Of a stretch of DNA of 1,053 nucleotides, positions 116 to 1,053 are shown piece after piece. This DNA is from Escherichia coli (lineage in GTDB: Bacteria > Pseudomonadota > Gammaproteobacteria > Enterobacterales > Enterobacteriaceae): assembly GCF_003334385.1 (NCBI RefSeq), contig NZ_QOWN01000131.1; one strand, written 5' to 3'. Below the pieces are notes generated by a model that saw nothing but the letters and a program-made list of their open reading frames with translations, ran no database searches and was not told where the DNA came from. Position numbers and translations under genes: made by a program. Each line of letters starts with the position of its first letter. The first letter of the stretch is position 1.

Positions 116-313
116 ATGCTGAAACAGCAGGATATGACCGAAACCGCCAGAGTGGTGTTTAATGAATTAAGTGCCACCGAACCGGCGACAGTCGGGGAGA
201 TTGCGCAGAATACTTACCTTTCACGTGAACGCTGCCAGTTAATACTGACCCAGCTTGTTATGGCGGGGCTGGCAGACTATCAGTTCGGTTGTTACAGACG
301 CCTTCAGTCCTGA
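116..313 (+). CDS. Small hypothetical protein (65 aa), winged-helix/HTH-like putative DNA-binding protein
   Basis: ATG 116 is preceded by AAGGGA with 7-nt spacing, and the stop is TGA 311-313. Translation: MLKQQDMTETARVVFNELSATEPATVGEIAQNTYLSRERCQLILTQLVMAGLADYQFGCYRRLQS. The pattern is helix (ARVVFNELS), then TVGEIAQNT, a turn, and an amphipathic helix (SRERCQLILTQLVMAGL). That is typical of small stand-alone winged-helix proteins. The track's GTG 29 start would add a Cys/Trp-rich, non-protein-like 29 aa with no SD. This frame is stop-free back to the window edge, so an upstream start cannot be formally excluded. A terminator follows immediately downstream. Confidence 0.7.
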   Translation: MLKQQDMTETARVVFNELSATEPATVGEIAQNTYLSRERCQLILTQLVMAGLADYQFGCYRRLQS

Positions 314-327
314 AGGCTTTTTTATTT
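300..327 (+). terminator. Rho-independent (intrinsic) terminator overlapping the stop codon of the 116-313 ORF
   Basis: GCCTTCA (300-306) pairs perfectly with TGAAGGC (311-317), giving a 7-bp stem around the 4-nt loop GTCC (307-310). It is followed directly by TTTTTTATTT (318-327). There is no matching A-tract upstream, so it is unidirectional for + strand transcription. Confidence 0.85.
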
Positions 328-340
328 GTGGTAAATGGGC

Positions 341-371
341 GGCTGGTGGGTGTTAGGGGCACTCACCAGCC
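341..371 (+). repeat. Strong inverted repeat / stem-loop in the intergenic leader (function unknown)
   Basis: GGCTGGTGGGTG (341-352) pairs with CACTCACCAGCC (360-371). That gives 12 bp (11 Watson-Crick plus one G-U at 349/363) around the 7-nt loop TTAGGGG (353-359). No U-tract follows on the + strand (ATCTGCTCATG), so it is not a canonical intrinsic terminator. Confidence 0.6.
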
Positions 372-412
372 ATCTGCTCATGCGTCCGGATCACAAGCAA
401 ACCTCAGGCCCA

Positions 413-431
413 CTGCTTTGCGCAAAAGCAG
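413..431. promoter_or_regulatory. Near-perfect palindrome; candidate operator or RNA hairpin upstream of the methyltransferase start
   Basis: The sequence is CTGCTTTGCGCAAAAGCAG. The core TTTGCGCAAA (417-426) is a perfect 10-bp palindrome, and the outer arms CTGC/GCAG match with one extra A. As RNA it forms a 7-bp stem (413-419 with 425-431) and the 5-nt loop GCGCA. It lies 33 nt upstream of ATG 464. Its regulatory role is inferred only. Confidence 0.35.
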
Positions 432-463
432 AATGAGCCTATCAGAGACAGGCTTAATGATCC

Positions 464-1053
464 ATGCTTAGTACTGTAAAAATATCCAGTTGTGAGTTAA
501 TCAACGCCGACTGCCTGGAATTTATCCGGTCGTTACCCGAAAATTCTGTTGACCTGATAGTCACGGACCCGCCGTACTTTAAAGTGAAGCCTGAGGGCTG
601 GGATAACCAGTGGAAGGGCGACGATGATTACCTGAAGTGGCTGGACCAGTGTCTTGCGCAGTTCTGGCGGGTGCTGAAACCTGCCGGAAGTCTTTACCTG
701 TTCTGTGGCCATCGCCTGGCGTCTGACATTGAAATCATGATGCGTGAACGCTTCAATGTGCTGAACCATATTATCTGGGCGAAGCCGTCCGGACGCTGGA
801 ACGGGTGCAACAAGGAAAGCCTGAGGGCATATTTCCCCGCCACAGAGCGCATTCTGTTCGCGGAACATTATCAGGGGCCGTATCGCCCGAAAGATGCCGG
901 GTATGAGGCGAAGGGCAGGGCACTGAAACAGCATGTGATGGCCCCGCTGATTTCTTACTTTCGTGATGCGCGTGCTGCCCTGGGGATAACGGCAAAACAG
1001 ATTGCTGATGCCACAGGAAAGAAAAACATGGTGTCGCACTGGTTCAGTGCCAG
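464..1053 (+). CDS. DNA methyltransferase, beta-class N6-adenine/N4-cytosine type (N6_N4_Mtase/PF01555-like), 5' partial; continues beyond the window
   Basis: I translated this by hand. ATG 464 is the first possible start because in-frame TGA sits at 458-460. The frame then stays stop-free for 196 codons to the window edge. Translation: MLSTVKISSCELINADCLEFIRSLPENSVDLIVTDPPYFKVKPEGWDNQWKGDDDYLKWLDQCLAQFWRVLKPAGSLYLFCGHRLASDIEIMMRERFNVLNHIIWAKPSGRWNGCNKESLRAYFPATERILFAEHYQGPYRPKDAGYEAKGRALKQHVMAPLISYFRDARAALGITAKQIADATGKKNMVSHWFSA. It has the N-terminal signature xDCLEfixsLPxNSVDLIvTDPPY, with catalytic motif IV DPPY at nt 566-577 (residues 35-38). That is followed by W..W....L..VLKPxGSLyxF, the canonical layout of beta-class amino-methyltransferases. 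Codon usage is typical of enterobacteria (ctg, ccg, gcg, cgc). The AdoMet motif (FxGxG) is expected downstream, outside the window. The SD is weak (CAGG 449-452, 11 nt from the ATG). Confidence 0.92.
   Translation, partial: MLSTVKISSCELINADCLEFIRSLPENSVDLIVTDPPYFKVKPEGWDNQWKGDDDYLKWLDQCLAQFWRVLKPAGSLYLFCGHRLASDIEIMMRERFNVLNHIIWAKPSGRWNGCNKESLRAYFPATERILFAEHYQGPYRPKDAGYEAKGRALKQHVMAPLISYFRDARAALGITAKQIADATGKKNMVSHWFSA

Follow-up and report, generated by a model that had tools for sequence, protein, structure and literature searches.

The plus strand of 464-1053, in a 1,053-nucleotide (nt) stretch of Escherichia coli DNA (assembly GCF_003334385.1, contig NZ_QOWN01000131.1; "the window" below), very probably carries, counted from the 5' end, 56% of an intact prophage gene that encodes a beta-class, S-adenosylmethionine (AdoMet)-dependent N6-adenine methyltransferase of the M.EcoGII/M.EcoGI family. 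A preliminary description, made from the letters alone, had read a beta-class methyltransferase in the frame opening at ATG 464 and had taken the two minus-strand open reading frames (ORFs) listed for the same region to be its shadows, and both readings are borne out here. The identity of the gene, its family, its motifs and its coding strand are directly observed. The gene was already known and annotated, so that the finding is correct but ordinary. Its features within the window are as follows.

464 to 1053, plus strand: methyltransferase, first 196 of 352 codons, beta-class N6-adenine, M.EcoGII family, continuing beyond the window (translation, PF01555, PHROG 6025, PADLOC, RefSeq coding sequence, identity to M.EcoGII, third-position bias).
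566 to 577, plus strand: catalytic motif IV, DPPY, residues 35-38 (read in the sequence; invariant in seven homologues).
962 to 1048, plus strand: helix-turn-helix-like segment at the beginning of the target recognition domain, residues 167-195.

The frame was read and translated from ATG 464-466. It stays open for 196 codons, to the edge of the window, contains LINADCLEFIRSLPENSVDLIVTDPPYF and translates as MLSTVKISSCELINADCLEFIRSLPENSVDLIVTDPPYF... An in-frame TGA at 458-460 excludes a start 5' of this ATG. A search against Pfam had been proposed as a check, and the window fragment matches PF01555 (N6_N4_Mtase) with E = 1e-17 and 65.3 bits; the full 352-amino-acid protein does so with E = 9.5e-44 and 150.4 bits, the curated cut-off being 26.7 bits. 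The fragment also matches PHROG 6025, "DNA methyltransferase", at E = 1e-103, and the full protein matches the PADLOC model MTase_II (Type II methyltransferase) at E = 4e-163. Against NCBIfam the fragment stayed below threshold, its matches being to models of adenine methyltransferases.

Several E. coli strains have the whole window in their chromosomes at 100% identity, among them SCU-104, where it lies in a lambdoid prophage; of 5426 complete E. coli genomes, 2206 (about 40%) contain a match. In SCU-104 the frame is the RefSeq coding sequence WP_016232051.1, a "DNA-methyltransferase" of 352 amino acids with its stop codon present (locus L001, 6464-7522). The second check proposed, extension 3' towards an AdoMet motif and a stop, is supplied by this identical record: DFFMGSGST lies at residues 308-316, outside the window, and the full-length ORF with this motif and a stop shows that the gene is not a pseudogene. 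The motifs of the full protein run in the order DPPY, target recognition domain, FxGxG, which makes it a member of the beta class; the same order and class are stated for M.EcoGII (PMC5778455). The Dam profile, PF02086, was unmatched at E up to 0.1, and the order is the opposite of that in Dam, where FxGxG precedes DPPY.

The closest characterised relative is M.EcoGII, a commercial enzyme; 328 of 349 residues are identical (94%, E = 0). The reference sequence used was that in Table S1 of PMC11551740, machine-read from the PDF. M.EcoGII methylates adenine in any context, is prophage-borne, is unexpressed in the lysogen and is deleterious once expressed, and it shares 333 of 349 residues with the equally non-specific M.EcoGI (PMC5778455). 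The window protein resembles these two enzymes of E. coli O104:H4 C227-11 in length (352 compared to 349 amino acids), in motif order and in prophage setting, and differs from M.EcoGII by 16-21 substitutions and a slightly different C-terminal tail. Phage 1720a-02 has been named as the carrier of an enzyme very similar to M.EcoGII (PMC5778455); it is the best phage match to the window, at 97% identity, and together with Stx2-converting phages spans 95-97%. A sequence search of the PDB found no close solved relative, and the central target recognition domain of about 170 residues had no detectable match there. What the solved beta-class structures 8urk/9c3u, M.RsrI (1eg2), CcrM (6pbd) and M.MboIIA (1g60) have in common with the window protein is the catalytic core and the AdoMet-binding core (E 1e-25 to 1e-14), and nothing outside these two segments aligns.

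The genes around the methyltransferase are those of a lambdoid prophage, in which it is the first large gene after Q and stands at the head of the late operon. The order in SCU-104 is RusA, the Q antiterminator (PF03589), a 65-amino-acid ORF, the methyltransferase, tRNA-Ile, tRNA-Arg, further genes, holin and lysozyme; the flanks also include replication protein P, and the surrounding lysis and antitermination genes are intact. The succession of Q, small ORF, methyltransferase and then tRNAs/stx or holin is common to six phages, with tRNAs and stx 3' of the methyltransferase in phiP27 and lysis genes in SfV, Eeyore, phiNP and a Morganella phage. The methyltransferases of Stx-converting and other lambdoid phages (1720a-02, phiP27 L24, SfV orf48, Stx2a/2c phages), at 82-97% DNA identity, likewise lie between Q and tRNA/stx or lysis genes; the window's prophage differs from the Stx phages in having no stx downstream. 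Its two tRNA genes are at L001 7563-7724, beyond the window, and at the place where stx comes next in Stx phages the SCU-104 prophage carries a TolA-like gene and a SASA esterase gene. There is no cognate restriction endonuclease gene next to the methyltransferase, its neighbours in SCU-104 being the 65-amino-acid ORF and the tRNA genes and, in the other phages, holin or stx. The enzyme is therefore an orphan late-operon methyltransferase and not one half of a Type II restriction-modification system, and PADLOC labels the protein as a methyltransferase only.

With about 94% identity to M.EcoGII, the enzyme would be expected to methylate adenine at N6 without regard to context. Its position, and the published silence and toxicity of M.EcoGII, suggest that it would be made only once Q turns on late transcription after induction, and that it would then methylate the replicating phage DNA. 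By analogy, such blanket N6-methyladenine could protect the progeny in new hosts whose restriction systems are sensitive to adenine methylation; the anti-restriction logic is that of Mu mom and of the non-specific methyltransferases found in its place in Mu-like prophages (PMC3299994). Harmful, broad-range DNA modification and late expression are common to those systems and to the one proposed here (PMC3299994). The window enzyme differs in belonging to the beta class, being neither an alpha-class enzyme nor Mom, and in its lambdoid, Q-dependent operon.

Against this reading it can be said that 16-21 residues differ between the window allele and M.EcoGII, that the M.EcoGII text used here apparently contains errors, and that the anti-restriction role of the M.EcoGII family is itself drawn from analogy. 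One apparent error is NHHIW, where all seven natural homologues aligned have NHIIW, and the true identity is likely to be a little above 94%. The enzyme could instead be a sequence-specific orphan methyltransferase, Dam-like with GATC as its target or directed to another motif, as would be suggested by the labels "DNA adenine methylase" or "dam" given to homologues in several phage records, and by the sequence specificity of most PF01555 members with solved structures (M.RsrI, CcrM, M.MboIIA). We consider this unlikely. The labels are automatic and are not tests, PF02086 is unmatched, and the identity to M.EcoGII extends over the full length of the protein. Moreover M.EcoGI, a paralogue 95% identical to M.EcoGII, is also non-specific (PMC5778455), so that non-specificity tolerates divergence of this size.

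A decaying prophage remnant, without function in this strain, is a very improbable explanation of the gene. M.EcoGII is silent in its host (PMC5778455), and damaged copies of the methyltransferase do occur elsewhere, but the identical genome holds a full-length ORF with all the motifs, the neighbouring lysis and antitermination genes are intact, and the gene is under strong purifying selection across Enterobacterales. The damaged copies are on viral contigs, one frameshifted (L100, 1694-2751) and one internally deleted (L115, 2137-2455), and in both the leader that precedes the gene is intact. PHROGs holds separate half families for the N-terminal and C-terminal parts (6025 and 6952), which, with these broken copies, suggests either recurrent pseudogenisation or split annotation.

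The ORF listing used a threshold of 60 amino acids and omitted ORFs running off the source. The plus frame is missing from it because it has no stop in the window, as the preliminary description supposed, and the only ORFs listed here at that threshold or above are two on the opposite strand.

533 to 1039, minus strand: 168-amino-acid antisense ORF in the codon register of the methyltransferase; a shadow (no family match; changes non-synonymous in this register; stops in homologues).
771 to 995, minus strand: 74-amino-acid antisense ORF in a different register; a shadow (no Pfam match).

The longer of the two is in exact codon register with the methyltransferase, as had been claimed. Positions 1037-1039 are CAC, which reads as GTG on the minus strand, and the ORF ends at the sense TTA of 533-535; both ends are in register with 464. 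Antisense stops in that register can come only from the sense codons TTA, CTA and TCA, and among the 196 codons these are found at positions 497 and 533 only. The methyltransferase gene uses these three codons rarely, and the minus-strand ORFs are by-products of its plus frame. When synonymous codons were resampled, an antisense open run of this length proved no more than slightly out of the ordinary, with P about 0.03 in the window portion and 0.08-0.10 over the whole gene. The product of the 168-amino-acid ORF had been called rich in Arg, Pro and His, which is roughly right (Arg 11.9%, Pro 7.7%, His 9 of 168 residues), and it is without a match in Pfam, NCBIfam or PHROGs, in keeping with the same account. 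It is annotated in none of the records examined. The 74-amino-acid ORF was unmatched in Pfam.

The coding strand was decided by codon alignments of the window part with six homologues of 62-88% protein identity. Differences at plus-frame positions 1/2/3 numbered 10/10/56 for phiP27, 17/12/80 for SfV, 23/18/104 for Eeyore, 31/17/107 for phiNP, 12/6/56 for a Stx2c phage and 56/44/98 for the Morganella phage. In all but one of these comparisons, 66-75% of the changed codons were synonymous in the plus frame. Read in the antisense register, only 4-8 of 63-128 changed codons were synonymous (59-121 non-synonymous), so that 94-95% of the changes were non-synonymous in the minus frame against every homologue. 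The substitution pattern is that of selection on the plus frame only. Stops interrupt the 168-amino-acid ORF in five of these homologues (phiP27, Eeyore, phiNP, the Stx2c phage and the Morganella phage), at codons that differ between them, and an ORF at the position equivalent to 771-995 is found only in the homologue from the Stx2c phage. Both ORFs were rejected as genes on the substitution pattern and the lack of conservation; despite its GTG start and a length somewhat above the resampling expectation, a real overlapping antisense gene at 533-1039 is extremely improbable. What is corrected here is an artefact of the ORF track, in which a real gene truncated by the edge was hidden and two antisense shadows were listed in its stead. 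ORF lists that drop edge-truncated frames will promote codon-aligned antisense shadows in this way.

The DNA directly upstream of the methyltransferase may hold the one finding made in passing that is new. The features there are:

326 to 463, plus strand: non-coding leader of about 138 nt, conserved and apparently structured, abutting the methyltransferase ATG on its 5' side (alignments, covariation, covariance-model matches, minimum free energy z = -3.96, no Rfam match).
300 to 327, plus strand: GC-rich hairpin and T-run, terminator-like, overlapping the stop codon of the 65-amino-acid ORF (terminator scan, fold).
116 to 313, plus strand: winged-helix-like ORF of 65 amino acids; most relatives have it in synteny with the methyltransferase (RefSeq coding sequence WP_000917743.1; PHROG 331, E = 1.8e-37).

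The leader is conserved well beyond what the third codon positions of the gene would lead one to expect. Between the window and 58 other loci the mean identity of the 129 nt 5' of the ATG is 81%, compared to 80% at first codon positions and 47% at third positions of the gene, and the leader exceeds the third positions at all 58 loci. One-base insertions and deletions in the alignments rule out that it is coding. Searches with an nhmmer profile and a covariance model showed the element immediately before the methyltransferase ATG at 62 of 80 loci retrieved from a species-representative genome collection (Enterobacterales), and located it in 50 IMG/VR contigs as well; many of the leader sequences are closely related. 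A DNA pattern scan of IMG/VR was also tried, and 26 of the 80 loci returned were set aside as chance matches with neither a covariance-model match nor a methyltransferase. Rfam gave no match to the window at E up to 1, and a more permissive search of 285-490 reached at best 16.6 bits against a gathering score of 36. A full-text literature search for the leader sequence found nothing.

The fold of the leader has a minimum free energy z of -3.96. RNAalifold on a MAFFT alignment gave a poor partial structure, so the helices were built manually and then assessed by counting pairs. These counts, made on the model alignment, support two hairpins, P2 and P5, together with a long-range helix, P4, in which GRUCA-AAGC pairs with GCUU-UGAUC and which ends 4 nt 5' of the AUG. 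For the structure with P2, P4 and P5, 94% of cells are paired and 22 of 29 pairs have two-sided changes; none of 500 shuffles reached the observed values, and slid controls were no more than 45% paired. All of these figures are biased towards the structure, since the alignment counted had been fitted to it. An alternative helix, P3 (UUCGCU:AGCGAA), shares the AAGC segment with P4 and also covaries, one of its pairs being variously C-G, U-A and A-U. P3 and P4 are mutually exclusive, which suggests a switch. The UGGGC:GCCCA helix is invariant but for one double compensatory change, and an alternative 5' pairing, AUGGGCG:CGCUCAU, is kept paired through one-sided changes and could not be told apart from it. 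No Shine-Dalgarno 4-mer is present at -16 to -5 in 49 of 62 leaders; in the remaining 13 the sole such motif is AAGG, some 12 nt upstream.

We propose, tentatively, that 326-463 is a cis-acting RNA switch, not described before, with which late operons of lambdoid-type prophages begin. Its core of about 100 nt would consist of the UGGGC:GCCCA closing helix and the hairpins P2 and P3, followed by the hairpin P5. The 3' strand would be able to pair with part of the core, forming P4 to the exclusion of P3 and burying the 12 nt before the AUG, which lack a Shine-Dalgarno sequence. The leader would in this way add translational control, and a harmful, context-free adenine methyltransferase would be kept untranslated until some late signal. 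A point on the other side is that the conserved 5' edge of the leader (TGTGAAAAT-like) could be a signal at the DNA level, such as an extended -10 element. A sigma-70 promoter scan of the window found no site, so that a promoter for the leader is unsupported. If the leader is a translational switch, it would help to explain how prophages silently carry a toxic, non-specific methyltransferase, and it would represent a new RNA family linked to anti-restriction functions. It could in that case matter more than the methyltransferase finding, the import of which is very small.

The hairpin at 300-327 may be part of the leader and not a terminator; at other loci a hairpin of different sequence takes its place, often without a T-run. 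The 65-amino-acid ORF gives weak Pfam matches to TrmB, MarR and HTH_24, all below cut-off, and is present in phiP27, SfV, phiNP and the Morganella phage. A regulatory role for it is possible. Phage Eeyore has no annotated counterpart of this ORF, yet its leader is intact. ARAGORN detected neither tRNA nor transfer-messenger RNA in the window.

In four Vibrio loci (L069, L070, L071 and L083) a small ORF with the Com-like pattern CxxC...CxxC separates the leader element from the methyltransferase. It is situated some 150-300 nt 5' of the match to the methyltransferase, and its AUG falls within the 3' strand of helix P4. This arrangement is similar to that of Mu com-mom, where translation is controlled via mRNA structure near the start codon (PMC3299994), as is proposed here for the leader. 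The Com-like zinc-ribbon ORF matches PF10122 at E = 0.0023, below the cut-off, and is confined to these Vibrio relatives; the window has no com or other Com zinc-ribbon gene upstream of its methyltransferase, the upstream ORF there being winged-helix-like.

Weak matches to the 5' core of the leader (36-41 bits) are also found at three loci without an M.EcoGII-type gene. They precede a holin (L117, 2192-2352), a similar small ORF and lysis-like ORFs (L103, 6099-6259, minus strand) and a Dcm-type cytosine methyltransferase (L091, 3300-3446). Upstream of the match, L117 has a Q antiterminator (PF03589), and L103 and L091 have ORFs judged Q-like by eye. Finally, Trabulsiella odontotermitis (L011, 524-611) carries a partial second copy of the first half of the leader, scoring 29 bits, about 850 nt upstream of the full element.
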